A DNA stretch of 64,000 bases from an uncultured Halobacteriales archaeon (GTDB lineage: Archaea > Thermoplasmatota > E2 > JACPAO01 > JAHFTW01): positions 2,238 through 66,237 of the forward strand of contig CAZXUC010000018.1 of assembly GCA_964643795.1 (NCBI GenBank). Direction: 5' to 3'. Shown here one piece after another: positions 5,599 to 30,693 of the stretch. A program made the translations under genes and the position numbers. A model generated the notes under the pieces. The model was given only the letters and a program-made list of their open reading frames with translations. It had not been told where the DNA came from and made no database searches. Numbering within the stretch: the first letter of the stretch is position 1; each line of letters begins with the position of its first letter.

Positions 5599-5821
5599 AT
5601 CGAGCACGCCTAGGCCGCGTGCGCTCCTGCGTGGACACAAGCAAGGTCCCCCTTAGACTGGAAGCCGGTGGGGTGGCCGAAGGGGCGGATTTCTCTTGCA
5701 GAACACAACCTCATCGCTCATATACTACGACGTTGCTGAAGCGTACCAATGGAGTTGACCATGGGGCCGGGCTGCGATTCCGACACGCACGATTACATCT
5801 ATTGGTGATTCCACAAGAAAC

Positions 5822-6118
5822 TCAGGTTCGAGTGGAGTCTTGTGGGGGCTGTGCCGTGCCTTCTTTGGGCGGTCCTTCTGGGGCCGGGGGCGCAGCTTCC
5901 AGGCCCTTCTTGCCGAGCATCTTGGAGTAGAATGCGTTAGGAAAACCGTGCAGCATGGCATTGAACTGCGCCACTCGAACCGGATCCCCGCCGCGCGCCG
6001 CGCGCTCGCCGGATTCAAAGCGGAAATAGAAGACGACAAACGCCACGATGTATAGTGTTCCGAGGACGTACAGGCACCAGGTCCACAGGGTCCACGCGGT
6101 CGGGTCCAGTTCCAGCAC
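5822..6118 (-). CDS. Small membrane protein, 98 aa.
   Basis: N-terminal TM helix. GTG start about 28 nt downstream of the TATA-like ttatag at 6144-6149, so possibly leaderless. Confidence 0.45.
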   Translation of the reverse strand: MLELDPTAWTLWTWCLYVLGTLYIVAFVVFYFRFESGERAARGGDPVRVAQFNAMLHGFPNAFYSKMLGKKGLEAAPPAPEGPPKEGTAQPPQDSTRT

Positions 6119-6192: not shown

Positions 6193-7563
<1,371 letters not shown>

Positions 7564-7983
7564 CGAACGAAAGCACCGGAGCGCATCCCACCGGGCGCGC
7601 TCCCACATGGAACCGGGACCGGTTTCCGGTCCGTCTCGAGGTCGAAAACAGGGGGAGATTCGAACCCATACCTGGGGGGATTCGACCCCACCCACGAGCT
7701 GGAATTGCGGCGATGCAGTTCCAGGTTCTGCCGCCATGTCAGCGCGACGACATGCTCGCGGACTGCATCGACGCGAACCTCAAGGCAGGTCGCGCCGGCT
7801 CCTACGTCGTGTTGTACAAGAAGACAGCCGCGTCGGGGCTCGACTGGAAAGGCCATCCGGGATATTTGGCGGCGGCACCTGCCTTTGTCGCTAGCAGGCC
7901 CGCACCAATCCCCTCGGAAAACCACGAAACGAATCAGGAGGCATCAGCTTCAAAGCGCCCAGACCAGTCTCCGCCAGGATTCG

Positions 7984-15081: not shown

Positions 15082-15951
15082 TTAGGTAAGGCGGCGCCGG
15101 AAAGCCCCGGCAAACGCAAGCGCCACAACGATGCCGACAAGACCGAAGGCCGGCGTGGTTGCGTGCGGGGTTCCGCTTGATTCCGCGGTCGTCGAAATCG
15201 AGGAGGATGTCGAACTCGATTCCGTCCCTGTCGCGGTCACGGACGTCGACGAAGTCGTGGCCGACGATGAGCTGGACGACGCCGGCGGCGCTGCGGTGAG
15301 CTTGATGGAGCCGAGCGGGATGATGGTCTGCGCCGCCGTGCCCGCCGCCAACGGCATGAGGTACGCAGTATCTCCCGGCGTGTAGTCAATCGACGTGTCC
15401 GCGTCGAACCACCCGATGCTGGCTGCGTTCCACGGCGCAGCGTTGGATCCGAACGCGATGAAGTCTGCGTCGGCCGCGAGCACAAACGAGCCGGCCGCGA
15501 AGCCGCCATGCGCCGCTTCAGTCGCGGTGAGGCGGACCGTCCACTGCCCCGTCCCGGATGTTGCGACGAGCCCGTTCCCGTTTCCCGTACGGATGTAGAC
15601 GTAGTCGTGCAGCGAGTAGTGGCCGTCGTTGTTCGTGTCCGCGTACATCACCTGCTCCGCCCCGGCGCCGCCGACCTGTGGATAGGGGTCTGTTTTCTCC
15701 TGAACGTCCGCGTCTGCGATTTCCGTTCCGTAGGGCCGCTCGATGCACGGGGTGATGCGCAGGTCGAAATTCTGCGCGCCTGCGCCGGAGGTCTGTCCCA
15801 TGTCGAGGAGGAGGCAGTTATCCGTCGCATCGCCCGCGACGCCGAAGTCGGCCTCGTTGACGTTCACCGCGATGCTGGGGGCTCCCGTGTAGTGCTGGGC
15901 GGCGGCAAGGGGCAAGAGGAAGATGGCGAGCACAGAGAGGAACCGCACCAC
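15082..15951 (-). CDS. Secreted surface protein with an S/T-rich linker and a PGF-CTERM-like anchor. One DxNxDG calcium-binding-like module.
   Basis: Signal peptide. DTNNDGHYSLHDYVYI motif. C-terminus PAFGLVGIVVALAFAGAFRRRLT. Confidence 0.8.
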   Translation of the reverse strand: MVRFLSVLAIFLLPLAAAQHYTGAPSIAVNVNEADFGVAGDATDNCLLLDMGQTSGAGAQNFDLRITPCIERPYGTEIADADVQEKTDPYPQVGGAGAEQVMYADTNNDGHYSLHDYVYIRTGNGNGLVATSGTGQWTVRLTATEAAHGGFAAGSFVLAADADFIAFGSNAAPWNAASIGWFDADTSIDYTPGDTAYLMPLAAGTAAQTIIPLGSIKLTAAPPASSSSSSATTSSTSVTATGTESSSTSSSISTTAESSGTPHATTPAFGLVGIVVALAFAGAFRRRLT

Positions 15952-16098: not shown

Positions 16099-18396
16099 CT
16101 AGGCCAGCCGTCGGCGAACCAACAAGCCGACCGCAAGGGCGGCCAAGAGGGCGACAACGCCGAGGCCCGGCGTATTCTCCCCAGTCGTGTCGCCAGAGAT
16201 CGGGGCCGGCTGCGTGGGCGCGGGCGTCGTCGGGGCGGGCGGCGTGGGGGTGGGCTCCACGGTCGGCGTGGGCTCGACGGGCGGCGCCGGCGGTGCGGGG
16301 GGCGCGATGTCTGCCGGCAGATTCCCAAAGAGGCGTACGCTGTAGCGCGGCACCGCCACGGGAGCTGCTCCCACGGCGAAGTAGGCCGAGTCTGTCGGCG
16401 TGAAGGAGCCACTCTGGTCTGCGTCGTAGTAGCGCAGCGACATGCCCGCCGCAGGGAAGGCCGTCACGGCGTTGCGGTACGCGACGAAGTCCGCGTCGGA
16501 GGCGAAGGCCAAGGACCCGGCCGGGTAGTCGCCGACGGGGGTGAGCCGCAGCGTCCAACTGGTCGGGGAGGTGGTCGGAAGTAGCGCCGTCGCTCCGACG
16601 CCGGCCACGACGTAGACGTCGTCGCCCGCCTTGTACTTCCCGTCGTTGTTGCGGTCGCTCCACATGAGCGTGTATCCCCCCGTGTCGGTGAGGACGGTGA
16701 CGGCCCCCTGGCGCAGGGCGACGTCGCCGTCGGAGACGAGTTCACCAGGCGACTTGCCGTTGCAGTTCGAGAGCAAGATGTCGAAGTTGGAGACGATGCC
16801 GGCGCTGATCGTGCTGTCCATGTCGGCAATCAGGCAGTCGTCCGTGGCTTCGGATCCGCCCAGGGCCACCCAGAGCAGGTCGTCCGTCACGAGGATGCCG
16901 GTCGACACGAGGGTAGGGCGGAAGTCGGCGTCGCCCAGTTTGACCTGGACGCCGGCCTTGGCCGGCTCTTGGACCCGGAGCGAGGAGGGGGGCAGGGTGG
17001 TGCCAGCGGCGGCGACGCCGCCCACGACGACGTACCACTTGGCCCCGTCGTACTCCTCGATCTCGGCCGACATCGCGGGCGTGAAGGCCAGGAGAGCGTT
17101 CTTGTAGGCGAGGTAGTCCAGGTCCGTCGCGAAGACGAACGAACCAGCCGGGCCACTTGCCGTCGGCGTCAAGCGGATGGTGAACGCGTCGATCCCAGTC
17201 GTGGCGGGCATGTTGGGCGCCGCCATGGCGGTTCCGGCGGCCATCTGGCCCATGTAGACGTAGTCGCCTGCGTCGTAGCGTCCGTTGTTGTTGACGTCGG
17301 CGAAGAGGAGGTCAACAATCTCCTGGACCGGGGTGGGCGCCTTCTCGATCACGTCGGTGTCAATGATCTTGGTCCCCGGAGCGCCTCCTGGGCCGGTCGT
17401 GATGCGGATGTCGTCGAAGTCGAGGGTGCCCGCCGAGTTCGTGCCCTTGACGTTGAAGAAGAACAAGTCGTCCGTGACGGGCGTGTCGCCAAGCGGCACG
17501 CGCCAGATGATGTCTGCGGCGGTACCCCCGGACAACGGCTTGCCTGCGCCCTTGGATGTCGGGACGAAGTCAGTTGCGCCACTGTTGACGCGGGAACCGA
17601 ACGTGTCGGTCTTGGACAAGCGCAGCGCGTAGCGGGGCGCGAAGACGTTGGCTGCAAAGCCGTCGGCGGCGGTGAAGGCACCATCCCCGTTTGAGGTCTT
17701 GAACATGAGGTAGACGCCGGTGCCCTCGAAGGCGACTGAGAACGCGAAAGGGATGCCTGGAGGCGCGCCGGGGTCGACGGCGGTAATGTCGTTTCCAAGC
17801 ACGACCACGGCGGTCTGGTAGGCTTGGTAGTCCGCGTCCGCGGGGTACGCGAAACTGCCGGCTGGGCCGGCGTCGCTCGACGTCAACCGGATCGTCCACG
17901 AGGCGAGGCCGGTGGTGGGCATGAGGACTGTCGTCCCCGTCCCGGACACGAGGAAGACTGGGTCCTTGTCCTTGAATTTCCCGTCGTGGTCCGCGTCGCC
18001 GTAGACGACGGTGGCGGCAGCCGCCAAGGCGGCGACCTTGATGCTCGAGTCCGAGTCGGACACTAGGTCGCCCGGCTTGCGGGTCTGGTACGGAGTGAGG
18101 AAGATGTCCTCGTTGTCCACGGTGTTGACGAGCGCGCCGCCGACGTTGATGCCCTTCATGTCGATGAAAAACACGTTGTCGGCCACTTCGCCGCTGACGC
18201 CGAGGTCGACCTGCAGCACCTTGAGGTGGTGGTTGTCGTCCACGTTGTCCACGCCGGCGGTCACGCCGTACGCTTTCTTGGAGAGGGGGGCGAAGTCGGC
18301 TTCCTTGTCAACTTGGCTTCCGAATTCGGCTTGTGCTAGCGGACCGGCCAAGAGGAGGGCCGCCAACAGAATTGTTCGCAAATGGATTGTTCGCAT
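16099..18396 (-). CDS. Large surface glycoprotein-like protein with four repeated DxNxDG modules and a PGF-CTERM-like anchor. Paralog of the neighbouring gene.
   Basis: Signal peptide. Repeats DADHDGKFKDKDPVF, DVNNNGRYDAGDYVYM, DRNNDGKYKAGDDVYV. C-terminus PGLGVVALLAALAVGLLVRRRLA. Confidence 0.85.
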   Translation of the reverse strand: MRTIHLRTILLAALLLAGPLAQAEFGSQVDKEADFAPLSKKAYGVTAGVDNVDDNHHLKVLQVDLGVSGEVADNVFFIDMKGINVGGALVNTVDNEDIFLTPYQTRKPGDLVSDSDSSIKVAALAAAATVVYGDADHDGKFKDKDPVFLVSGTGTTVLMPTTGLASWTIRLTSSDAGPAGSFAYPADADYQAYQTAVVVLGNDITAVDPGAPPGIPFAFSVAFEGTGVYLMFKTSNGDGAFTAADGFAANVFAPRYALRLSKTDTFGSRVNSGATDFVPTSKGAGKPLSGGTAADIIWRVPLGDTPVTDDLFFFNVKGTNSAGTLDFDDIRITTGPGGAPGTKIIDTDVIEKAPTPVQEIVDLLFADVNNNGRYDAGDYVYMGQMAAGTAMAAPNMPATTGIDAFTIRLTPTASGPAGSFVFATDLDYLAYKNALLAFTPAMSAEIEEYDGAKWYVVVGGVAAAGTTLPPSSLRVQEPAKAGVQVKLGDADFRPTLVSTGILVTDDLLWVALGGSEATDDCLIADMDSTISAGIVSNFDILLSNCNGKSPGELVSDGDVALRQGAVTVLTDTGGYTLMWSDRNNDGKYKAGDDVYVVAGVGATALLPTTSPTSWTLRLTPVGDYPAGSLAFASDADFVAYRNAVTAFPAAGMSLRYYDADQSGSFTPTDSAYFAVGAAPVAVPRYSVRLFGNLPADIAPPAPPAPPVEPTPTVEPTPTPPAPTTPAPTQPAPISGDTTGENTPGLGVVALLAALAVGLLVRRRLA

Positions 18397-18560: not shown

Positions 18561-18926
18561 TTACGGCCCAACGATCGTCTCCGCGGTCAACTTGCGCACG
18601 ACTCGGCCGTCGGCCACGATGCGGACTTGGAAGGTCATGCGTTCGCCCAGCGTGGCCTCCGGCGGTGCGGCGACTTGGAGGTACAGGACGAGCGGAATCC
18701 CTGCCATGAGTCGGAGCTTGTCCAGCCGAGTGTGTGCCGTCCAACCGGTGGCGGGTGGTTCGACATCGATGTACACGTCGCGGTAGGGTGCGAAGCGGTT
18801 CTGCAGGCGCAACTCGAACCTAGTGATGCGGCCAGGCTTGACCATTCCAGCGTTGGGCGTGATGGTTGCTTGCACTCGCGACCAGCGAGGACGTTGCGGG
18901 CGGAGCTTCAGAAGTTCGTTTGCCAT
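18561..18926 (-). CDS. Hypothetical protein upstream of the surface-protein genes.
   Basis: ORF 18561..18929, 122 aa. Confidence 0.45.
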   Translation of the reverse strand: MANELLKLRPQRPRWSRVQATITPNAGMVKPGRITRFELRLQNRFAPYRDVYIDVEPPATGWTAHTRLDKLRLMAGIPLVLYLQVAAPPEATLGERMTFQVRIVADGRVVRKLTAETIVGP

Positions 18927-19019
18927 CACGATGGACTAGAGGCGCATCACGACGAACCTTCGCACCGGAGACTCCATAGTGAAAGGTGCGACGCGGCATT
19001 CGGTCGTGCGACGGCAGCG

Positions 19020-19328
19020 TCAAGGCGGCGACGGTAACACTTCGAGCATCTCTTCGAGGAGTCGCTCGACCGCTCGCAGGTCCTTTGTCCGTCCCTTCCC
19101 CGGCTTCGTGCGCAGGGCATGGACAGCCTTGCGCATCTTCGCGATGGTCTTCAGGCTCGGCGGGCTTGGCTTGTTCTTGCCGCCAGGTGCCCGCAATGCT
19201 TTCACGACTTCCTGGAACCTCGCGTCCGTGCGCAGCTTGTACGCCTCCGCGGATTCCTTCCATGCACGTCGGGCCGCTTCGACCTCTACGGCAAGGGCCT
19301 GCGCATGTTCCACTCGCTTCGACGTCAT
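19020..19328 (-). CDS. Small basic protein coupled to the thymidylate-kinase-like pair.
   Basis: Its ATG overlaps the stop of the upstream gene (ATGA). Sequence MTSKRVEHAQALAVEVEAARRAWKES... Confidence 0.5.
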   Translation of the reverse strand: MTSKRVEHAQALAVEVEAARRAWKESAEAYKLRTDARFQEVVKALRAPGGKNKPSPPSLKTIAKMRKAVHALRTKPGKGRTKDLRAVERLLEEMLEVLPSPP

Positions 19329-20023
19329 GGCTTGGTTCCCCACGAAGCGAGAAGTCCCTGCAGTTGCGATTGCAAATGCCGGTCGACGACGCCGACGCCA
19401 CGGTTCGCGTTCACGACGTTGAAGCCATAGCGCGGGATGATCTCCTGGAACTGGTCGCGCATCTTGCGTTGGTACTTCAAGAACGATTCGTGCCAATCCC
19501 GGCTCAGGCCCAAGTCCATTCCGGATTCCCAGTAGTCGAGGTCGGGGTGGCGCTCGAGGCGCCGGTCGAGCAGGGTCTTGGCGCTGGCTTGCAAATAGAA
19601 CAACGCGTCCGGCACGATGGCCTTGGCATACACGTTCTCCACCCAGGCGGGGTCTGCGCCGCGGACAAGGTCGCGGGCCATCAGGGTGAAGATGTACCGG
19701 TCGGCGAGCACGATGGCGCCCGAGCGGAGTGCGGGGACGATCTGGTTCTCTAGTTGGTCGTAGAAGTCACTGGCATAGAACAAGCTCATCGTGCGCGGCG
19801 ACAAGGTGTTGCCACGACGGGCTTCCTCGAGTTCCGGCGCGACCAGTTCGCTGCGGCGCAGTCCGACTTCCACGACGGCGTAGCCTTCGCGCTGCAGCCA
19901 CTTGGAGAGGAGGCTAACGTGCGTTGACCGACCTGAGGAATCCTGGCCCTCGATGACGATGAGCAGGCCACCAAGGTCGGCGAGGTTGACGCCGGGCGGA
20001 GGGACACCGTAGCACGTCTTCAC
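19325..20023 (-). CDS. Thymidylate-kinase-like P-loop kinase, paralog B (P-loop Lys replaced by Arg: GRST).
   Basis: IVIEGQDSSGRST P-loop and DRY motif. Start overlaps the upstream stop. Confidence 0.8.
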   Translation of the reverse strand: MKTCYGVPPPGVNLADLGGLLIVIEGQDSSGRSTHVSLLSKWLQREGYAVVEVGLRRSELVAPELEEARRGNTLSPRTMSLFYASDFYDQLENQIVPALRSGAIVLADRYIFTLMARDLVRGADPAWVENVYAKAIVPDALFYLQASAKTLLDRRLERHPDLDYWESGMDLGLSRDWHESFLKYQRKMRDQFQEIIPRYGFNVVNANRGVGVVDRHLQSQLQGLLASWGTKP

Positions 20024-20976
20024 AATGGCACCCCGCGATACACTCGGCTGCGCCGTTGGAATCGCGCCAGATCAACGCGCTTCTTGACGACCGCCCGCAT
20101 CTCCTCCTGCATGGCATGGATCTCCCGGTTGGCGTCGATGCGTTGGAAAGCGAACTCTTCCGCCATGTCGCGATAGTGCTGCATGATGCGACCCTGGAAG
20201 ATCTTGAACGACTCCCGGATGTCCGTATGGAGTTCAAGGTCCATGCCTGCCTCGTGGAACTTGAGGTTGGGTCGGCCGCTGAGGATGCGATGCAGGCTGA
20301 CCTCGAGCGGGACGTCGTAGTAGAACGTCAAGTCGGGGACGCGGGCAAAACTGTACAGGCGACGTAGCCACTCGGGGTCGCAGCCGCGTACGCGGTCGCG
20401 CGCGAAGGCCGTGAACATGTAGCGGTCACACAAGACGATGGTGCCCGATTGCAGGCGCGGCAGGATCTGGCGTTCATATCGGTCCGCAAAATCCGTGGCG
20501 TGGATGAGGCTGAACGTCGTCGGCGTGAGAAGTTGGTCCTTCTTGCCGCGCTTGGTTGCCCCGCGCACGAGGCTCGAACTGTTCCATTCGCTGAAGAAGA
20601 CCTTGCAGCCAAGGCCGATGAGCCACTCGTGCAGGAGCCGGATCTGCGTCGATTTCCCGGAGCCGTCGACGCCTTCGACTGCGATGAGTATCCCCGGCGC
20701 GTTGTCGCCCTGCTCGGCGACGAACTCTGAGGCGGGCGCTTGGGCCGGCGTCAAGGGAGTGGCGGGTGTTGGTAGTGTGGTCGTGGGTGTTGGTAGTGGG
20801 GTGGTTGGTGTCGATGTGGAGGTTTGTGTTGATCCGGGGGTTGGCGTTGATGCGGTGGCTGCTCCCGGGCCTGACGCACCAACTGGTTGTGCCGGGGTCG
20901 CCTTGTGAAGTGGTGGTCTTCCCGCAAGCGCCTTGGGCCTGGTCGTCGCCATCGGCGTCTTGATTGCGGCCTTCAT
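20020..20976 (-). CDS. Thymidylate-kinase-like P-loop kinase, paralog A, with a P/T/A-rich N-terminal extension.
   Basis: IAVEGVDGSGKST and DRY motifs. Start chosen at MKAAIKTP to avoid the 170-nt overlap with ppx that ORF 20020..21183 would create. Confidence 0.7.
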   Translation of the reverse strand: MKAAIKTPMATTRPKALAGRPPLHKATPAQPVGASGPGAATASTPTPGSTQTSTSTPTTPLPTPTTTLPTPATPLTPAQAPASEFVAEQGDNAPGILIAVEGVDGSGKSTQIRLLHEWLIGLGCKVFFSEWNSSSLVRGATKRGKKDQLLTPTTFSLIHATDFADRYERQILPRLQSGTIVLCDRYMFTAFARDRVRGCDPEWLRRLYSFARVPDLTFYYDVPLEVSLHRILSGRPNLKFHEAGMDLELHTDIRESFKIFQGRIMQHYRDMAEEFAFQRIDANREIHAMQEEMRAVVKKRVDLARFQRRSRVYRGVPL

Positions 20977-21011
20977 CGGTTTCACGGGCGGCTTCTTGCG
21001 GGGCTTGCTGC

Positions 21012-22571
21012 TCAAGTCGACTCCTCCTTCTGTGTCTCGAGTTCCAGCCCGTAGACTGTCGTGAAGAGTCCGCCTTTTTGTTGCACGGCCCATTGCTCCA
21101 GTTCCATGTCGCCCTCGCCCGTGAGGCGGAGGCGGAGCAATTTCGGTTCGCGCAGGCACTTGACTTTGCGCACGGCTTGGCAATGCTCCCGGTCGAGGGC
21201 GTCTGCGACGCGAAGGATGCCGGACAGTCGCATCACGCGGGCTTGGTCGGCGAGGCTGAGCGCAGCGTACGGCGCATGGCTCGGCTTGGGCTCACTGCGC
21301 CGGTGGTACCGTGCGACCTGCGCCACGAGTTCCACTTCCGGTTCCGAGAAGCCCGGCAGCTCCGATTCCGAGATGAGGTAGTAGGAGTGCTTGTGGTGTT
21401 TCTTGTCGCCCACGAATCGCCCGACGTCGTGCAGGATGGCGGCGGCGTGCAGGATGGCTCGGTCAGCGGTGCCCAGGTTGTGCAGGGTGGCCAACTGGTC
21501 GAACATGGACAGGGCAAGCCGGGCCACATGAAGACCATGCGCCTGCTCAAGGTCGAACCTGCGTCCGAGGGCGAGCGCCCCGTCTTGGACTTTGGACGCG
21601 TATTTTCCAGCGCGACCGGGAGTAGCCCCTGTCGCTTCAACGAGTTGCTCGACGAGGTCGTACACGATGCCTTCCTTTAGTCCAACGTGGGGGACGTGGA
21701 TGCGGTCGACTCCTGCCAGGTGCGCGACGTGTTCGTACACATACGCAGCGGGGAGGATGACGTCGGCGCGGTCGGGGCGGAGGCCGAGTTCCTTGACGCG
21801 CTCCTTTGCGTCGAGCTTGGCGAGCCGGTCGATGGTCTTGCTGAGGTCCTTGAGCGGCATCTCGCTGACCTTCGTGTCCGGGTCGCGGAGGCCGGCGAGG
21901 CGAGCCAACTCTTCGATGTTGCCTCCCGTCGCGGCGAGGCCGGCAATCTTGCGAGACCTGCGGTTGCCGGGCAGGCGCAGCGTCTCGACGGTCTCTTGGA
22001 TGAGGCGACGGAACCGTTCGGGTTCGCCCTCCATCGCGCGGAATTCTTCGAGCAGGCGGACGGTGCCCATCGGATGCGATTCGCTCCACACGAGTCCGTC
22101 GCCGTCCACGAGGCTCACCTCGACGGAGCCGCCGCCCAGATCCATGGTGATCCAGGACCCGTCCATTTTGATGCGGCGGCGCACCGCCGCGTACACGAGC
22201 CTGGCCTCTTCGGCGCCGCTTACGACGTCGACGCGAAGGCCCGTCTCCTTCAGGATGCGTTCGAGGAAGCGACTTCGGTTGGACGCCTCACGCACGGCGC
22301 TCGTTGCGACAGCGCGCGTCTGGTAAACCTTCAAGTCTTTGAGTTGGCTCTGGAAGCCCTTCAGCGCGGCGACTGCGGCGTCCATCGTCTCCCCGTCGAT
22401 GGAGCCTTCGCGGAAGACGGACGTCCCCAGCCGCACGGTGGCGCGTTCCTCGAGCAGGTCCCGCAAGTCGCCGGCCGGAGTTGCCTCGGCGACCATGCAA
22501 CGGATGGCGTTCGATCCAATGTCGATGGCGGCGAGGCGGACGGGCCATGTTGCGCTGGTCTCTGTGGTCAC
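21012..22571 (-). CDS. ppx: Ppx/GppA exopolyphosphatase with a C-terminal HD domain.
   Basis: AAIDIGSNAIRC actin-fold N-terminus. HD motif (LHDVGRFVGDKKHHKHS). Confidence 0.9.
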   Translation of the reverse strand: MTTETSATWPVRLAAIDIGSNAIRCMVAEATPAGDLRDLLEERATVRLGTSVFREGSIDGETMDAAVAALKGFQSQLKDLKVYQTRAVATSAVREASNRSRFLERILKETGLRVDVVSGAEEARLVYAAVRRRIKMDGSWITMDLGGGSVEVSLVDGDGLVWSESHPMGTVRLLEEFRAMEGEPERFRRLIQETVETLRLPGNRRSRKIAGLAATGGNIEELARLAGLRDPDTKVSEMPLKDLSKTIDRLAKLDAKERVKELGLRPDRADVILPAAYVYEHVAHLAGVDRIHVPHVGLKEGIVYDLVEQLVEATGATPGRAGKYASKVQDGALALGRRFDLEQAHGLHVARLALSMFDQLATLHNLGTADRAILHAAAILHDVGRFVGDKKHHKHSYYLISESELPGFSEPEVELVAQVARYHRRSEPKPSHAPYAALSLADQARVMRLSGILRVADALDREHCQAVRKVKCLREPKLLRLRLTGEGDMELEQWAVQQKGGLFTTVYGLELETQKEEST

Positions 22572-22610
22572 GGCGGCCGCACTCCTCGAGGGCAGACCGG
22601 ATTTCCACTT

Positions 22611-22625
22611 TCCCTATAGAGACTA
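22611..22625. promoter_or_regulatory. CTATAGAGACT motif (inverted copy of GACTCTATAG) in the ppx/pstS divergent region.
   Basis: About 10-bp motif seen four times in the pho locus promoters. Other copies at 22725-22737, 23860-23869 and 23875-23890. Confidence 0.4.
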
Positions 22626-22724
22626 CGGCTCGTTGCACGTGTTGGCCGCCCCAGTTTGGGCGCATGCTTTGCGCGGTGGACTGTTGGGCATTCCCCTGCG
22701 GCGTGAGTCCAACGTGAGTCAATT

Positions 22725-22737
22725 GTGACTCTATAGG
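22725..22737 (+). promoter_or_regulatory. GACTCTATAGG motif (TATA-like) upstream of pstS.
   Basis: Same motif as above. Lies about 25 nt upstream of the TTG at 22759 and about 60 nt upstream of the SD-preceded ATG at 22798. Confidence 0.4.
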
Positions 22738-22797
22738 CAATGCTGAAGCGTCGCAAATTTGCCTGCAAGGTCAGCCCACATGGGTGAGGAAACAACC

Positions 22798-23787
22798 ATG
22801 ACAATGAAGCTCCCTCTGTTCGCGGTGGCCGCCATGACCACCATGCTACTGTCCGGCTGCACCAGCATGACCGGCAGTTCGACCTGCACGCCCTTCGAAG
22901 GCGCGGCCGTCACTATTGACATCGACGGCAGCTCCACCGTGTACCCCGTCTCCGAGGCCTGGGCCGAGGAATACTCCCGCTGCGCCGGCATCGAGGCCAA
23001 CGTCGCCTTCTCCGGCACCGGCGGAGGCTTCCAGCAGTTCTGCCGCGGCGAGATCGACGTCTCTGGCGCCAGCCGCCCCATCAAGACGGGCACCGGCTCC
23101 GAGACTGAGAACTGCCAGAAGGCCGGCATCACCCCCTTCGAGATCCCGGTCGCCATCGACGGGCTCGCCGTCGTCGTGAGCAAGCAGAACACCTTCGTCA
23201 CCGACCTCAAGGTGTCCGAGCTCAACCGCATGTGGACCGCCGACCCCGCCAAGCAGGTCAACAACTGGAAGGACCTGCGTTCCGAGTGGCCCGACCAGGA
23301 CATCAAGCTCTTCGGTCCCGACACCAACTCCGGCACCTTCGACTACTTCGTGGAGGTCATCGTCCACCCCTTCGACGGCAGCATCACCAAGGGCCGCAGC
23401 GACTACACGGGTGCGCCGGACGACCACGTCCTGGTCGCCGGCGTCGCCGGCACCGCCCGCGGCATGGCCTACTTCGGTCTCGCCTACGCGATAGAAGCGG
23501 CGGACAAGCTGCGCATCGTTCCCGTCATCCAGGACACCAAGGACGGCGGCAAGACCTTCATCTCCGGAGCCCAGCCCGTCATGCCCACGGCCAGCAACGT
23601 CGAGAACGGCGTCTACGCCCCCCTCTCCCGCCCGCTGTTCATGTACACGGACGGCGCTCCCACGGGCCAACTCAAGGCCTGGTTCCAGTACGGCCTTTCC
23701 CCCGAGGGCCAAGCGATCGTCTCCGAGGTCGGCTACATCAAGCTGAACGAGGCCAAGCGCACCGCGGCGCTCGCCAAGCTCGGCTAA
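22798..23787 (+). CDS. pstS: Phosphate ABC transporter substrate-binding lipoprotein.
   Basis: Signal peptide MKLPLFAVAAMTTMLLSGC. PstS-like body. ATG at 22798 preceded by GGTGAGGA. ORF 22759..23787. Confidence 0.9.
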   Translation: MTMKLPLFAVAAMTTMLLSGCTSMTGSSTCTPFEGAAVTIDIDGSSTVYPVSEAWAEEYSRCAGIEANVAFSGTGGGFQQFCRGEIDVSGASRPIKTGTGSETENCQKAGITPFEIPVAIDGLAVVVSKQNTFVTDLKVSELNRMWTADPAKQVNNWKDLRSEWPDQDIKLFGPDTNSGTFDYFVEVIVHPFDGSITKGRSDYTGAPDDHVLVAGVAGTARGMAYFGLAYAIEAADKLRIVPVIQDTKDGGKTFISGAQPVMPTASNVENGVYAPLSRPLFMYTDGAPTGQLKAWFQYGLSPEGQAIVSEVGYIKLNEAKRTAALAKLG

Positions 23788-23859
23788 GGCTCCCGGCATC
23801 CCGCCCCTCTTCCCCTTTCCTCCCTGGCACTCCTTGGGCCCCCAAACCGCTTTCATGTT

Positions 23860-23890
23860 CTCTAGAGTCAACATTAGACTCTATAGACAA
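23860..23890 (+). promoter_or_regulatory. Tandem CTCTAGAGTC / GACTCTATAG motifs between pstS and pstC, a candidate internal promoter or operator.
   Basis: Perfect palindrome CTCTAGAG followed by GACTCTATAG, about 35 nt upstream of the pstC ATG at 23921. Confidence 0.4.
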
Positions 23891-23920
23891 CTGTCATGCC
23901 GCGACGCGGCCCCTCGACCG

Positions 23921-24889
23921 ATGCCCATGGCCCCCGAATCCCTTCCCGCAGCCGCCCCTGTGCTGCACCGCGAGGGCTGGGGCTGGCACGTCTGGAAGGA
24001 ACGCGGCATCATCGCCATCATGTTTGCGGCGGCCAGTGTCGCCACCCTGGCCACGGCGGCCATCTTCCTCACCCTGATAATCAACGGCTGGGAGTTCTTC
24101 CAAGCCGTGAGCCTCAAGGAGTTCTTCACCGGCACCGACTGGGCGCCCGACTTCCCACCGCCGCGCTTCGGCAGCGTCCCGTTAGTCAAGGGCACGTTCC
24201 AGATCGCCCTCGGCGCCATCGCCATTGGCCTGCCCCTCGGCGTGGGATCGGCCTTGTTCATTTCGGAGTTCGCCGGCGCCCGCGTCCGCCGCATCCTCAA
24301 GCCCGCCATCGAGATTCTCGCTGGTATCCCCTCCATCATCTTCGGCCTCGTCGCCCTCTTCATTCTCTCCCCCCTCATCATCGACCTCTTCGGCCCCAGC
24401 AAGCTGTTCCCGGTCAGCGAGACGCCGGGCACCTTCACGGCCCTGGCCGCCATCTTGGCTTTGTCCATTATGGTCATCCCCATCATCGCCGCCATCAGTG
24501 AGGACGCCCTGCGCGCCGTCCCCATAGAACTGCGGGAAGCCAGCCTCGCCCTGGGCGCCACGAAGTGGGAAACGACGTGGAGCGTCGTGCTGCCTGCCGC
24601 CAAGTCCGGCATCACGGCCTCCGTCATCCTCGGCTTCAGCCGCGCCATCGGCGAAACCATGGTCGTCACGCTGGCCGCTGGCCTCGTCAGCAACATGAGC
24701 TGGAACCCCCTCGAGCCGACCCAGACCATCACCGCTTTCATCGCCAACCGCGCCGGCGGAGACCTTCCCACGGGCAGCATCGAGTACCTGGCCATCTTCG
24801 CCCTCGGCGCCTTGCTCTTCGTCATCACCTTCATCATCAACCTCGTCGCCGAGTACATCCTGGCTGCGCAGCGGAGGAAGTTCGCATGA
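23921..24889 (+). CDS. pstC: Phosphate ABC transporter permease.
   Basis: ATG at 23921 in ORF 23834..24889. Multi-TM ABC permease with the EAA-like loop. Confidence 0.9.
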   Translation: MPMAPESLPAAAPVLHREGWGWHVWKERGIIAIMFAAASVATLATAAIFLTLIINGWEFFQAVSLKEFFTGTDWAPDFPPPRFGSVPLVKGTFQIALGAIAIGLPLGVGSALFISEFAGARVRRILKPAIEILAGIPSIIFGLVALFILSPLIIDLFGPSKLFPVSETPGTFTALAAILALSIMVIPIIAAISEDALRAVPIELREASLALGATKWETTWSVVLPAAKSGITASVILGFSRAIGETMVVTLAAGLVSNMSWNPLEPTQTITAFIANRAGGDLPTGSIEYLAIFALGALLFVITFIINLVAEYILAAQRRKFA

Positions 24890-25758
24890 CCTCCACACTC
24901 GGCACCCTCTCCCTGCGGCGCCGCATCAAGTCCGCCATCGGCGTGGGCACCCTCGGCTTCGGCGCGTTCGGCGCGTTGGCGGTCCTTGCATGGCTTCTCG
25001 CCCTCATCGTCCAGAAGGGTGCCCCGTCCATCGACCTGCAGTTCCTGCAGGGATTCCCGTCCCGCAACGCGGCCGACGCTGGCGTCCTGCCCGCCGTCGT
25101 CGGCACGCTGCTCGTCGGCGCGGCCAGCATGCTGGTGGCAATCCCGGTGGGCATCGCCGCCGCCGTCTACCTCAACGAGTTCGCCCGCGCCACGCGCCTC
25201 ACGTCCTTCCTGCGCGCCAGCATCGCCAACCTTGCGGGCGTCCCCTCCGTGGTCTTCGGCATCCTCGGCCTGGCCCTTTTCGTCCGCGCCATGCAACTAG
25301 GCTCCAGCATCGTCTCCGCCGGCCTCACCCTGGGCCTCCTGACGCTTCCCATCGTGATCGTCGTGTCCGAGGAGGCCCTCAAGTCCGTGCCCGGCGCGAT
25401 GCGCGAGGCTGCCTACGGCCTGGGCGCGAGCCCTTGGCAGGCCGTGCGCCACCATGTCCTTCCCTACTCTCTGCCTGGCATGCTGACGGGCAGCATCCTC
25501 GCCCTCAGCCGCACGATGGGCGAGACCGCTCCGCTCATCCTCATCGGCGCTGTCGGCTTCACGGCAACGCTTCCGCAAGGCCCCAAGGACGCCTTCACGG
25601 TCCTGCCCATCCAGGCATACAGTTGGGCACCACGCCACCAGCCTGGCTTCGAGGCCATTGCGTGGGGCGCCGTCCTGATCCTCATCATCCTGGTGCTGGT
25701 GGCCAACCTCGCCGCCATCATCATGCGCGACCGCTTCCAACGCCGCTACCGGTGGTAA
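24886..25758 (+). CDS. pstA: Phosphate ABC transporter permease.
   Basis: ATG at 24886 overlaps the pstC TGA. Permease fold. Confidence 0.9.
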
Positions 25759-25759
25759 C

Positions 25760-26611
25760 ATGGCCCAAACCCTTCAGACCCAAACCAAGATGAACCACGC
25801 CTCGGCTCGCTTGCTCGTGAAGACCGCCGGCCCGCTGCCCAAGGCGGCCCCCATCATCGATCCCATCTTCACGGCGCGCGGCCTCGGCGTCCATTACGGC
25901 ACCAAGCAGGCGCTTCGGGACATCACCATCGACATCCCACAAAAACAGGTCACGGCATTCATCGGGCCGTCCGGCTGCGGCAAGTCCACGTTCCTGCGCT
26001 GCCTCAACCGCATGAACGACCTGATTCCGACTGCCAAAGTGTCGGGCGACCTGCGCTTCCGGGGCCTCGACGTCCACTCTAAGGACGTGGACCCGGTCAT
26101 GCTACGGCGCAAGGTCGGCATGGTGTTCCAGAAGCCCAACCCGTTCCCGAAGTCAATCTTCGAGAACATCGCATACGGCCTGAAGCTAGAGGGCAACCTC
26201 TCCAAGGCCGACGTCAAGGACCGCGTCATGTGGGCGCTGGAGAAGGCGAACCTCAGGGCGGAAGTTGAAGACCGACTCAATCAGCCTGGCACTGCACTTT
26301 CGGGGGGTCAACAGCAGCGCCTGTGCATCGCCCGCGCCTTGGCGGTCAAACCCGACGTCATCCTCATGGACGAGCCTTGCTCAGCCCTGGACCCGATTGC
26401 CACCTCAAAAATTGAGGACCTGATTGACGAACTGGTGAAGGAGTACACGGTCGTCATCGTCACGCACAACATGCAGCAGGCGGCGCGCGTGTCGGATCGG
26501 ACGGCGTTCTTCTACCTCGGCGACCTCATCGAGTACGATTCGACGCAGCGCATTTTCGAGAAGCCATCCAACGAGAAGACCGAGGCTTATGTCACGGGGA
26601 GGTTCGGCTGA
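25760..26611 (+). CDS. pstB: Phosphate ABC transporter ATP-binding protein.
   Basis: Walker [13 protein letters not shown] signature LSGGQQQR, Walker B ILMDEP. Confidence 0.95.
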
Positions 26612-27264
26612 TGCGCGAGAGCTTCCTTTCGCAGCTTGAGGCCCTCGACCAACATGTCGCAGACATGGCGCACCTGGCCAAGTCGATGCTCGCCGATGGT
26701 CTGGACGCACTTGAGGCCGTGGACCCTCACCTGGCAGAAACTGTCGCCGAGCGTGCCGAGGAACTGGCGAAGATGGACGAAAGCATCGAGACGGAAGCCC
26801 TCTCCTTGTTGATGCTGCAGGCGCCCGTCGCAAGGGACCTGCGCCGAATCGGAGCCATCCTGAAGATCATCACGTACCTGAACCGCATTGGGCGCTATGG
26901 CTATGACATCGCCAAGGCCACGAAGGACCTTGCCAAGGTCCCTGCCCCCCAACGGTCCAGCATCGTGACCCTGCGCCAGATGTCCGGCGACGTTGAGAAG
27001 ATGGTTGACTTGGTCTTGGCGGCCTTCCGCGAGCGGAAGGGCCCGGATGTGCGGGCCATCATGGCACTCGAAGACGACGTGGATTCCCAGCGCTACACGG
27101 TTTGGCGTGCCTGCCTCAGTTTCATGGCAGAGGAGCCCAAGACCATCGAAGCTTGTGCCCACGTCATGATGGTGGCGCGGTACTTGGAACGCTGCGGCGA
27201 CAACGTCGTCAAGATGGCTGAGAAGCTGCACTACGCCGCAACTGGCGAGCGCATCATGCTGTAA
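26611..27264 (+). CDS. phoU: Phosphate uptake regulator PhoU.
   Basis: ATG overlaps the pstB stop. Two PhoU repeats. Confidence 0.9.
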   Translation: MRESFLSQLEALDQHVADMAHLAKSMLADGLDALEAVDPHLAETVAERAEELAKMDESIETEALSLLMLQAPVARDLRRIGAILKIITYLNRIGRYGYDIAKATKDLAKVPAPQRSSIVTLRQMSGDVEKMVDLVLAAFRERKGPDVRAIMALEDDVDSQRYTVWRACLSFMAEEPKTIEACAHVMMVARYLERCGDNVVKMAEKLHYAATGERIML

Positions 27265-29006: not shown

Positions 29007-30605
29007 CTACTGCCGCAGCGCCCGCACGTCGTCGAGGATGGTCCGCACCGCCATCTCTTGCACGTTGCGCATCGCGGCGTCGACTTTGTAGCCGAGGATG
29101 TCCTGGCCGCGCAGCAACCCACTGAGGCGCTTGCGGTTGTAGTCCAACGCCTCCGTTGGAACCACTTGGTCAAGGATTCCGGCCGCGTCGGCGAGACCGA
29201 GGAGCAAAATCGTTGCGGCGTCCGGTGTGCCGCCGCCCGCGATGGCTCGCCGGAGGCGGTTGCGTAAGCGCTCCTGCGCGGTCGGATTCGTGACGGCGAA
29301 CGTCGAGCGGCGGAAGATGCCCATGTGCTTCCATTCGCGGGCCTCGGCGAGTCCTTTGCCGACGAGGCTTGCTTTACTGGCTCGGATGAGTCCGGGCAGT
29401 TCGCTGCCAAGGCTCTTCATCGCATCGCGGCTCGTCGTGTCCTTCATGACGCTCAACTTGTTGAGAAGCGGCGCTAGGCGGGGCGTTCCGTTGCCTTGCA
29501 CGATGAAGCGGTCGCGCTGCACCTGAAGGGCGCCGTGGTGGACGGCTTCGAGGAGAAGCGCACCAAGGAGCGCGCCGCCGACGCCGCCGGACGCCACTTT
29601 TTCGCCGCGCTCATCCCAGATTCCTTCCGCGGCGAGCAGGAGGAATGCTTCGGGGATCGGTTGCTCCGAACTGGATTTCGTCGCCTCTTCGTCGTGGACC
29701 TGAACCATCGAACCGTTGTCGCCCGAGTCGGCATCGGCGTCGGGTGAACGCCCGCGACCCTTGCGCGAGGTCCCGTCGTCATCGCGCGCGTCGGGGGCAG
29801 CATCAAGTGAGTCTAGGACGACCGGCTTGGCGCGCCGCTTCTCCAGTTCAGCGACCCAGTCGGTATTCTTGCCGGCGGCCGCGGCCTGCGTCTTCTTTGC
29901 GGGCTCGCCTTTCTTGGCCGTCTCCTTCGCGATTTCCGGCTCGAGTTTGCGGCGGTGGCCATTGGTGGGAGCGGGCTTCACTGCGACGGCCGGCTCGGAC
30001 GGCACGACTTCCGGTTCCGCTGGAGGGGAGTCTACCTCGATTGTGTTGGCGGCCTTGCCATGCAGCGCGGGTTCAGGTTTCGCGTCGACGACTGGCTTGG
30101 CCTTGGCTTGCTTGGCTGCCGCCTTCTTCGCCGCCTTTGCAGCCTTTGCCTCGGTCTTGCGCAGTTTCTTGGCGGCCTTCTCGTGCGACGCCTTCAGTTT
30201 CTTCGCCGCCTTTGCCTCCGCTGCGAGCTTCTTCTTGGCGGCCTTTGCTTCAGTCGCCTTGAGTTGCTTGGCGGCCTTGGCGTTCGTCGCCTTGTGCTTC
30301 TCGGCTGCGGCCGCGTCCACGGCCTTGTGCGCCTGCGCGGCATGGGCGTCGGTGTCCTTGTGCGCCTGCACCGGATCCGAGGATTTCGCATGGGCAGGCT
30401 TCGCCTTGGCGGCCTTGGCTTTCGCCTTCGTCGCCTTCGGGCTCGAACTCTGCTTGGCGGCTTTGGCCGGTTTGGCGGCCTTCGCGGGCTTGTGCGCTTT
30501 CGGCTCCGTTTTCGCAGCCAGGTGGGGTTTGGCCTTGGCCTTGGCGTCCTTCTTCGCGGCTTCCGCCTTCTGCTTCATCGCTGCCTTCTGGGTGCGCGTC
30601 GCCAT
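29007..30605 (-). CDS. Lys/Ala-rich (histone-H1-like) N-terminal region fused to a C-terminal GPP34/GOLPH3-like domain.
   Basis: About 200 aa of KAAK/AKAK repeats. The C-terminal segment LLLAAEGIWDERGEKVASGGVGGALLGALLLE... resembles GPP34 (PF05719). Confidence 0.75.
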   Translation of the reverse strand: MATRTQKAAMKQKAEAAKKDAKAKAKPHLAAKTEPKAHKPAKAAKPAKAAKQSSSPKATKAKAKAAKAKPAHAKSSDPVQAHKDTDAHAAQAHKAVDAAAAEKHKATNAKAAKQLKATEAKAAKKKLAAEAKAAKKLKASHEKAAKKLRKTEAKAAKAAKKAAAKQAKAKPVVDAKPEPALHGKAANTIEVDSPPAEPEVVPSEPAVAVKPAPTNGHRRKLEPEIAKETAKKGEPAKKTQAAAAGKNTDWVAELEKRRAKPVVLDSLDAAPDARDDDGTSRKGRGRSPDADADSGDNGSMVQVHDEEATKSSSEQPIPEAFLLLAAEGIWDERGEKVASGGVGGALLGALLLEAVHHGALQVQRDRFIVQGNGTPRLAPLLNKLSVMKDTTSRDAMKSLGSELPGLIRASKASLVGKGLAEAREWKHMGIFRRSTFAVTNPTAQERLRNRLRRAIAGGGTPDAATILLLGLADAAGILDQVVPTEALDYNRKRLSGLLRGQDILGYKVDAAMRNVQEMAVRTILDDVRALRQ

Positions 30606-30693
30606 GGGAGTCCCTATGGTCCCGGCGAGGCAGGGTTAGGAAGAAGAGCCCTTCGCTCGAGCGGCAATCCGCTCGACCGATTGGTCGGCCTTC

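Follow-up and report, generated by a model that had tools for sequence, protein, structure and literature searches.

The window analyzed here is a 64,000-nt stretch of DNA from a Thermoplasmatota archaeon, and all coordinates below refer to it. Between positions 22571 and 19020 four genes, ppx, tmkA, tmkB and a gene for a small basic protein, lie head-to-tail on the minus strand, as an earlier reading of this DNA (the original prediction) had described. The first gene, ppx (21012-22571), has a GTG start and codes for an exopolyphosphatase of 519 aa, which is of the long bacterial type with a C-terminal HD domain (Pfam Ppx-GppA 5.1e-53, Ppx-GppA_III 3.4e-30, HD 4.9e-11). The products of the two following genes match the Pfam family Thymidylate_kin (PF02223; TmkA 1e-21, TmkB 6.8e-19) and are predicted here to be the catalytic subunit (cPPK3) and the regulatory subunit (rPPK3), respectively, of a family-3 polyphosphate kinase (PPK3). 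The gene tmkA is placed at 20020-21015 within a reading frame that is open from 21183, with the kinase core at about 20694-20020; its product has 331 aa when translation starts at TTG 21015 and 244 aa when it starts at TTG 20754. The gene tmkB (19325-20023) has a GTG start and codes for 232 aa. The last gene (19020-19328) codes for a helical protein of 102 aa with a pI of 10.5 and 23 lysine and arginine residues.

The genes are closely joined. That ATGA overlaps link the last three of them is correct for tmkB and the small-protein gene, which share a 4-nt ATGA, and had to be amended for tmkA and tmkB, where the 4-nt overlap of the tmkA stop and the tmkB start reads GTGA. Because of the ATGA overlap the small-protein gene appears to be translationally coupled to tmkB. 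The ppx/tmkA junction is a TTGA overlap, provided that TTG 21015 is the start of tmkA. The two kinases are paralogous to each other as had been supposed, being 39% identical across 201 aa (E 4e-50).

A pair of Tmk-like genes next to ppx is also present in Sulfolobus acidocaldarius, where sixA, ppx (saci_2018), saci_2019, saci_2020 and a CHAD gene make up one operon (Hofmann et al., Journal of Biological Chemistry 2026, PMC12995831; preprint 10.1101/2024.08.28.610084). Both saci_2019 and saci_2020 are annotated as thymidylate kinases. Saci_2019 forms polyphosphate (polyP) from ATP with polyP + ADP -> ATP as the preferred direction and has no dTMP kinase activity, the real dTMP kinase of this organism being Saci_0893, which is encoded elsewhere in the genome (PMC12995831). 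Saci_2020 is inactive alone and stimulates Saci_2019 maximally at a ratio of 1:1, and the complex of the two proteins is an alpha2beta2 tetramer (PMC12995831). PPK3 systems usually go together with a separate canonical dTMP kinase gene elsewhere in the genome and with no PPK1 or PPK2. The family was named PPK3 with the catalytic subunit cPPK3, of which STK_15430 is a homolog, and the regulatory subunit rPPK3; a positively charged cleft is conserved in cPPK3 and not in rPPK3, and the inactivity of rPPK3 was ascribed to the lost arginine of the DRX motif (PMC12995831).

Among known structures the top match of both window kinases is one and the same protein, STK_15430 of Sulfurisphaera tokodaii (2PLR/5H70), with E 1.7e-55 for TmkA and E 6.3e-34 for TmkB. 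This protein has been deposited as a "probable thymidylate kinase" (PDB 2PLR, 4NZY, 4RZX, 5H70) and has the same P-loop, DRY motif, lid and post-lid insertion; it differs in that it is a single subunit, crystallized alone and without an N-terminal extension. Its similarity to TmkB is much lower, and its P-loop lysine is not found in TmkB. Canonical Tmk structures match TmkA and TmkB only with E 1e-10 to 1e-15 (best for TmkA 1.6e-15). Sulfolobales loci were taken from hot-spring metagenomes with the 2PLR sequence as query, and one of them (L086) has the order SixA-ppx-cPPK3-rPPK3-CHAD in agreement with the published operon. Sulfolobales cPPK3 is 50% identical to TmkA (204 bits) and 36% identical to TmkB (136 bits).

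For the motif analysis we used 103 A and 103 B sequences, A being the TmkA-type and B the TmkB-type subunit, which come from the window, from 20 Sulfolobales loci and from 83 further loci found with TmkB as query. The A subunits have the P-loop lysine in 100 of 100 cases and the DRX arginine in 101 of 102. In TmkA itself the P-loop (GSGKST), the DRY motif and the A-specific basic residues are intact. Six positions (K159, R179, R182, R248, K252 and R307) are basic in at least 94% of the A subunits and in at most 54% of the B subunits, and TmkB is without the basic residues conserved in A; these positions probably map to the cleft described for cPPK3. In a neighbor-joining (NJ) tree rooted on E. 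coli Tmk the A subunits form a clade with Sulfolobales cPPK3 in 78 of 100 bootstraps. The original prediction had pointed to the sequences HEAGMDL (TmkA) and WESGMDL (TmkB) as foreign to canonical Tmk. They belong to a stretch of about 11 residues that is inserted behind the lid when E. coli Tmk is taken as the reference. This insertion is seen in 2PLR as QEAGADI and in all A and B homologs examined, and is thus a trait of the family.

Taken together these data make it very probable that the operon encodes a PPK3 system, and TmkA is most likely an ortholog-level match of cPPK3. The suspicion that the unit has a polyP- or nucleotide-linked role and is not a plain dTMP kinase is borne out by the S. 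acidocaldarius pair beside ppx, a polyP kinase without dTMP kinase activity.

The name given to such proteins in public databases nevertheless has to be considered: either protein, or the pair, could truly act as a (d)NMP kinase, such as a housekeeping dTMP kinase that was duplicated and came to lie beside ppx by chance. Both proteins match Pfam Thymidylate_kin, their homologs are publicly annotated as "dTMP kinase", and the S. tokodaii homolog had at first been described as a thymidylate kinase of an unusual kind (cited in the PPK3 preprint). On the NCBIfam dTMP kinase equivalog TIGR00041 they score just under the cut-off of 83.25 bits (TmkA 80.7, TmkB 76.1). This cut-off does not cleanly exclude PPK3, since the Sulfolobales cPPK3 of L086 (4989-5636) reaches 106.4 bits. 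NCBIfam release 20.0 contains no PPK3 model; with a cPPK3 above the TIGR00041 cut-off, PPK3 subunits will therefore be systematically annotated as dTMP kinase. The two families share the fold, the P-loop/DRX/lid architecture and the ATP site. Against a dTMP kinase stand these scores below the equivalog cut-off, the gap of 40 orders in E-value between the cPPK3 structure and the canonical Tmks, the P-loop lysine lost in B, the post-lid insertion, and the activities of Saci_2019 and Saci_0893. In E. coli Tmk we take F74 (stacking) and R78 (to O4) to be the thymine-binding residues; the aligned positions are replaced by His/Phe in TmkA and by Tyr/Phe in TmkB, the family consensus being HATDF and YATDF. 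Neither kinase groups with canonical Tmk by similarity, a clustering that the original prediction had named, for a sole tmk of the genome, as speaking against its own proposal. Finally, the two genes stand together and their linkage is to ppx, with CHAD, SixA and pst in the conserved context, and not to holB or DNA-metabolism genes. We regard a role as (d)NMP kinases as very improbable.

Two further readings start from the ppx product and from defense databases. Since the Ppx/GppA family includes GppA, and the NCBIfam GppA model indeed matches the ppx product with 4e-41, the unit could act on alarmone-type nucleotides, with a GppA-type pppGpp phosphohydrolase and nucleotide kinases. The exopolyphosphatase-only model (exo_poly_only) is however the top NCBIfam match and scores far higher (231.9 versus 141.5 bits), the neighbors in related loci are the polyP-specific CHAD and phosphate transport genes, and the characterized homolog uses polyP, so that we consider an alarmone function highly unlikely. 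We give hardly any credit to the idea that the Tmk-like pair serves in anti-phage defense or in nucleotide depletion and have rejected it: it rests on weak and partial PADLOC matches (the candidate PDC-M51B with 2.5e-7 and 1.3e-6, VakA with 0.02), which are accounted for by the P-loop kinase fold, no other defense genes are nearby, and the phosphate-metabolism context is conserved across phyla.

We now turn to the second kinase of the PPK3 system. As had been read from the sequence, the P-loop of TmkB is GRST with the lysine replaced by arginine. This arginine is present in 102 of 103 B subunits, including 18 of the 19 Sulfolobales rPPK3. The DRX arginine is retained in TmkB (LADRYIFT) and in all 84 non-Sulfolobales B subunits, and it is replaced by glycine (D-G-Y) in all 19 Sulfolobales sequences. 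The hallmark of the regulatory subunit is thus the near-universal change of the P-loop lysine to arginine, not the loss of the DRX arginine, which is seen only in the Sulfolobales loci. Sulfolobales rPPK3 finds in TmkB its best match of the window (31% identity, 119 bits; 25% and 76 bits with TmkA). Conversely, TmkB scores higher against Sulfolobales cPPK3 (136 bits) than against rPPK3 (119 bits). From the P-loop change, the gene order and the reciprocal match with Sulfolobales rPPK3, TmkB is most likely the regulatory subunit.

Several points weigh against the assignment of the operon to PPK3 and against a simple transfer of the published subunit roles. TmkB has both the DRY arginine and an ARD motif, which are lost from Sulfolobales rPPK3 (84/84 versus 0/19), and because these are retained TmkB may not be inactive in the manner published for rPPK3. 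In the NJ tree the long branch of Sulfolobales rPPK3 stands apart from the clade of the bacterial and Thermoplasmata B subunits (27/100), and the orthology of B and r is therefore judged from their reciprocal similarity, the order of the genes and the P-loop change found in both. The window contains no CHAD or SixA gene beside the operon. There is no third Tmk in the 64-kb window, and no PPK was found among the 20 window open reading frames (ORFs) scanned. PPK3 activity in this clade is predicted from homology to the S. acidocaldarius enzyme.

Relatives of the operon were sought in a collection with one genome per species. At least 588 of at least 599 candidate stretches encode a relative of TmkB, and the best 80 of these at least 588 loci were examined. 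At the protein level TmkB has thousands of relatives, of which the 120 top-listed are without a source name or are labeled Tmk-type or hypothetical. Closest among the best 80 loci are three Thermoplasmata metagenome-assembled genomes (L001-L003) with 71-77% identity (the nearest relatives overall, at 71-79% identity, are the basis for placing the window in Thermoplasmatota), followed at 52-66% identity by bacterial loci from Acidobacteriota, Gemmatimonadota, Spirochaetota, Verrucomicrobiota, Bacteroidota, Ignavibacteria, Caldisericales, Dehalococcoidales, Sumerlaeota and others. In one locus (L058, 5355-6270) the cPPK3 match is split over two frames (residues 6-231 and 231-320), which is a frameshift or an assembly error. 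The A-then-B tandem is found in all 83 related non-Sulfolobales loci. The gene ppx lies directly upstream of the pair in 25 of them, and the full order ppx-A-B-small protein is present in 21 of the 83 loci. The latter include all three Thermoplasmata relatives; the gene order is therefore not absent in close relatives, which had been set as the outcome that would count against an operon of this kind, and it recurs in many other genomes. CHAD, SixA (His_Phos_1) and pst/phoU genes are repeatedly found near related loci. The nearest relatives do not share the linkage to pst, which is seen again in some bacterial loci.

In the NJ tree the Thermoplasmata sequences are nested within the bacterial group, and the closest non-archaeal relatives are from Acidobacteriota. 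This nesting, and a Ppx of the long bacterial form with its HD domain, make it probable that this archaeal lineage acquired the operon horizontally. The main text of the PPK3 paper speaks of "a few bacteria" and leaves Thermoplasmata, Acidobacteria and Verrucomicrobia unmentioned (PMC12995831); the preprint mentions Acidobacteriota (10.1101/2024.08.28.610084). The system is very probably a member of the known PPK3 family in a phylum beyond those discussed in that main text.

The fourth gene of the operon is less easily placed. The small protein has no match in Pfam, NCBIfam or PADLOC, and a single-sequence search in an index of 5.8 billion proteins found only the protein itself, which reflects a limitation of the word index. 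With an iterated profile search, a domain some 100 residues long was detected immediately behind rPPK3 in 32 of the 78 loci with enough downstream sequence. It is missing from the other 46, among them most Verrucomicrobiota (for which the ORF listing is noisy at high GC and the gene following rPPK3 not readable), some Gemmatimonadota and all Sulfolobales. The homologs come from archaea and more than eight bacterial phyla, occupy the same position and are 18-42% identical to the window protein. A profile built from these loci-derived homologs was used to reach remoter ones, and in a library of representatives at 50% identity the family comprises 804 clusters at E <= 1e-3 and 484 at E <= 1e-10. 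Of the homologs that the profile search returned, none has a Pfam domain and nearly all lack a name or are called "hypothetical" (two bear stray labels from JGI); the 32 members from the loci share no Pfam family. The family has a nearly invariant loop, K75-P76-x-K78-G79-R80-x-K82-D83-L84 (KPxKGRxKD). In a confident AlphaFold2 model from a 54-sequence alignment (predicted local distance difference test 88.6, predicted TM-score 0.70) the protein forms helices at residues 2-45, 59-71 and 81-97, and the conserved loop sits between helices 2 and 3. Foldseek gave no match in the PDB at E <= 0.001 (best E 1.9), and the best match of the profile among PDB sequences, Integrator subunit 3 with E 0.042, was judged to be a chance match.

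Like the CHAD granule proteins (PF05235) the small protein is helical and basic, and CHAD occupies the place after rPPK3 in the Sulfolobales operon. In many bacterial loci CHAD follows the small protein, and in one protein (P0335), whose gene has a Tmk gene on one side and one for a SixA-type phosphatase on the other, the small-protein domain is fused to CHAD. We nevertheless rejected the idea that the small protein is a miniature CHAD. CHAD has about 230 aa as compared with about 100 aa, an hhalign comparison with a CHAD profile from 41 loci gave a probability of 0.3%, and the small protein has no conserved histidines and an invariant motif of its own. Moreover, both are found together in 15 loci, i.e., the small protein co-occurs with CHAD and does not replace it. 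Viewed from the side of the small protein, four further homologs were inspected. Three of them have the order Tmk-Tmk-small protein; next comes either SixA or a metallophosphatase and then CHAD, with ppx upstream in two and phoU-pst and a two-component system alongside in one. In the fourth context CHAD is found downstream, and the upstream gene of 285 aa, left unscanned, is truncated by the end of the contig.

Some loci show further peculiarities around this gene. A Bacteroidota locus (L032) has two copies of the small-protein gene (824-1132 and 6836-7132), one beside the kinase pair and the other about 6 kb upstream. In L081 a gene similar to nucleoside 2-deoxyribosyltransferase (7123-7614, 5e-7) comes after the small protein, and in L107 a Metallophos phosphoesterase gene (5331-5996) is inserted between the small protein and CHAD. 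Proteins of 430-680 aa with a C-terminal CHAD, maybe of the CYTH-CHAD type, are encoded 1-2 kb downstream of the small protein in L004-L013, L020, L024, L030 and L045 (at about 7.5-9.5 kb).

The 102-aa ORF might be a conserved hitch-hiker or an unrelated gene, perhaps one that regulates another process. Its absence from the 46 loci, all Sulfolobales included, as well as the lack of a recognizable domain would fit such a reading. It overlaps, however, the rPPK3 gene by 4 nt and keeps its position in archaea and more than eight bacterial phyla, with identities of 20-40% and the loop invariant; the Tmk pair stands immediately before it in three of the four contexts viewed from its own side (the fourth being the one cut by the contig end), and it occurs as a CHAD fusion. 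We therefore think that a mere passenger is rather unlikely and that the small protein is reasonably likely to be a functional partner of the PPK3 system. A more far-reaching proposal, in which we place less trust, is that the small protein is an unrecognized third component of the bacterial-type PPK3. As an adaptor it might bind polyP or cPPK3/rPPK3 and hand the enzyme to CHAD-coated granules or tune the direction of the reaction, the rPPK3 with its DRX arginine might be a working nucleotide- or polyP-binding partner, and PPK3 might in most organisms be a three-part machine unlike the Sulfolobus prototype.

A direct comparison with the S. acidocaldarius enzyme (SaPPK3; Saci_2019 and Saci_2020) brings out how far the likeness goes. 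In both systems ppx is followed by the catalytic and then by the regulatory Tmk-fold paralog, the basic residues are kept in the catalytic subunit only, the P-loop lysine of the regulatory subunit is changed to arginine, a post-lid EAGxD insertion is present, and the neighbors belong to phosphate metabolism; the catalytic subunit of the window is 50% identical to a Sulfolobales cPPK3. The window system differs by the DRY arginine and the ARD motif of its regulatory subunit and by its Ppx, which is of the long HD-containing bacterial type and has 519 aa as against 420 aa in L086. It is further distinguished by an operon without SixA and CHAD, with the 102-aa basic protein after rPPK3 instead, by a possible basic and PT-rich N-terminal extension of cPPK3, and by its Thermoplasmatota host, in which the Acidobacteriota kin point to horizontal transfer. 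An analogy also exists to the two-domain class II PPK2 (e.g., P. aeruginosa PA3455), likewise a P-loop polyP kinase, in which an inactive duplicated module supports the oligomerization of the active one (analogy from PMC12995831). It belongs, however, to a different P-loop kinase family, is one fused polypeptide and uses AMP, not ADP; at the sequence level there is no match, the poly_P_AMP_trns model giving only E 0.097.

The possible N-terminal extension of TmkA deserves a closer description. From the ppx stop to the kinase core there are about 320 nt in the window, and the cPPK3 of relatives begins 6-23 residues ahead of the P-loop glycine. The stretch at 20755-21015 (minus strand) between ppx and the cPPK3 core is lineage-specific and is either a basic and P/T/A-rich extension or an untranslated spacer. 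TTG 21015 has a strong Shine-Dalgarno sequence (GGAGGAG) six nt upstream and overlaps the stop of ppx in TTGA; TTG 20754, the start used in the gene call of the public assembly, has no Shine-Dalgarno sequence. The GC content at third codon positions (GC3) of the first 30 codons after 21015 is 0.80 and hence coding-like. In the P/T/A-rich part it is 0.42-0.53, with the codons CCA and ACA, which are rare in ppx, whereas the PT linkers of neighboring surface-protein genes have a GC3 of 0.73-0.94. The corresponding DNA (20755-20913, minus strand) is a C/A-rich low-complexity stretch with two copies of the direct repeat ACTACCAACACCC and would encode the P/T-rich part of the extension. The close relatives L001-L003 do not have the P/T/A-rich extension. 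We treat it as a lineage-specific insertion and lean slightly toward its being translated. Of the extension that the original prediction had described, the stretch itself exists in the sequence; the version of about 140 aa was given up, as its start in the ORF track (TTG 21183) overlaps ppx and the GC3 in the tmkA frame is 0.36 there.

Divergently to ppx the genes pstSCAB-phoU are encoded on the plus strand (22759-27264), as had been noticed before. The Pfam families PBP_like_2, BPD_transp_1 (twice), ABC_tran and PhoU identify pstS (22759-23787), the two permease genes pstC (23834-24889) and pstA (about 24886-25758, start ATG 24886), pstB (25760-26611) and phoU (26611-27264), respectively. The intergenic region between ppx and pstS (22572-22758, 187 bp) contains two mirrored copies of CTCTATAGG, one on the minus strand at 22613-22621, about 41 nt upstream of the ppx start codon, and one on the plus strand at 22729-22737, about 22 nt upstream of the first start candidate of pstS. 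They are the sole exact copies of this 9-mer in the 64 kb. The region also harbors the palindrome GAGTCA-ATTG-TGACTC with a GTGAGTC repeat nearby. The CTCTATAGG copies and the palindrome may be archaeal promoter or regulator sites common to both operons. Because this short divergent control region is shared by the ppx operon and pstSCAB-phoU, it suggests that phosphate uptake and polyP turnover could be regulated together.

Of the other genes in the window, two (16099-18396 and 15082-15951, both minus strand) code for secreted or surface proteins with a PGF-CTERM-like tail, which consists of a PT- or S-rich linker, P-G-L or P-A-F, a hydrophobic helix and RRRL. The larger of the two has a GEVED domain and a weak C-terminal match to the model of the ArtA-dependent haloarchaeal S-layer glycoprotein (E 0.009). 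Such proteins are consistent with an archaeal host. An ORF of 542 aa (29007-30635, minus strand) has a C-terminal GPP34 (Golgi phosphoprotein 3) domain (7.7e-20) on this archaeal contig. Just downstream of the operon lies an ORF of 122 aa (18561-18929, minus strand) with a coding-like GC3 and no match in Pfam or NCBIfam; the public gene call has 94 aa.

From these comparisons the following mechanism can be proposed, in which enzyme activity, stoichiometry and flux direction are carried over from the published Sulfolobus enzyme. TmkA would, by homology, reversibly transfer the terminal phosphate between ATP/ADP and polyP. It would use the Tmk-type ATP site with the P-loop lysine and the DRY arginine, and the dTMP site would be replaced by a basic cleft. 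TmkB, with its changed P-loop and the basic cleft lost, would be non- or weakly catalytic and by analogy provide, as a dimer, the core of the alpha2beta2 complex in which it activates cPPK3. Ppx would hydrolyze polyP to phosphate, and the 102-aa protein would most likely be a dedicated accessory, an adaptor that binds polyP or the complex and acts with CHAD-type granule proteins. The net flux would mainly be polyP + ADP -> ATP at low energy charge.

Descriptions of PPK3 date only from 2024-2026 and present it as a mainly crenarchaeal enzyme. With the very probable assignment made here, the locus extends the family to Thermoplasmatota, and its relatives extend it to many bacterial phyla. This bears on polyP metabolism as deduced from genomes and metagenomes, i.e., on phosphorus-cycling surveys and on calls of "no PPK", the more so as the curated dTMP kinase model fails to separate dTMP kinase from PPK3. 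To the main text of the PPK3 paper our analysis adds the wide distribution, a corrected hallmark of the regulatory subunit, with the exchange of the P-loop lysine for arginine taking the place of the DRX loss, and an unannotated family of small proteins linked to PPK3, whose KPxKGRxKD members offer experimenters a concrete candidate partner of the enzyme.

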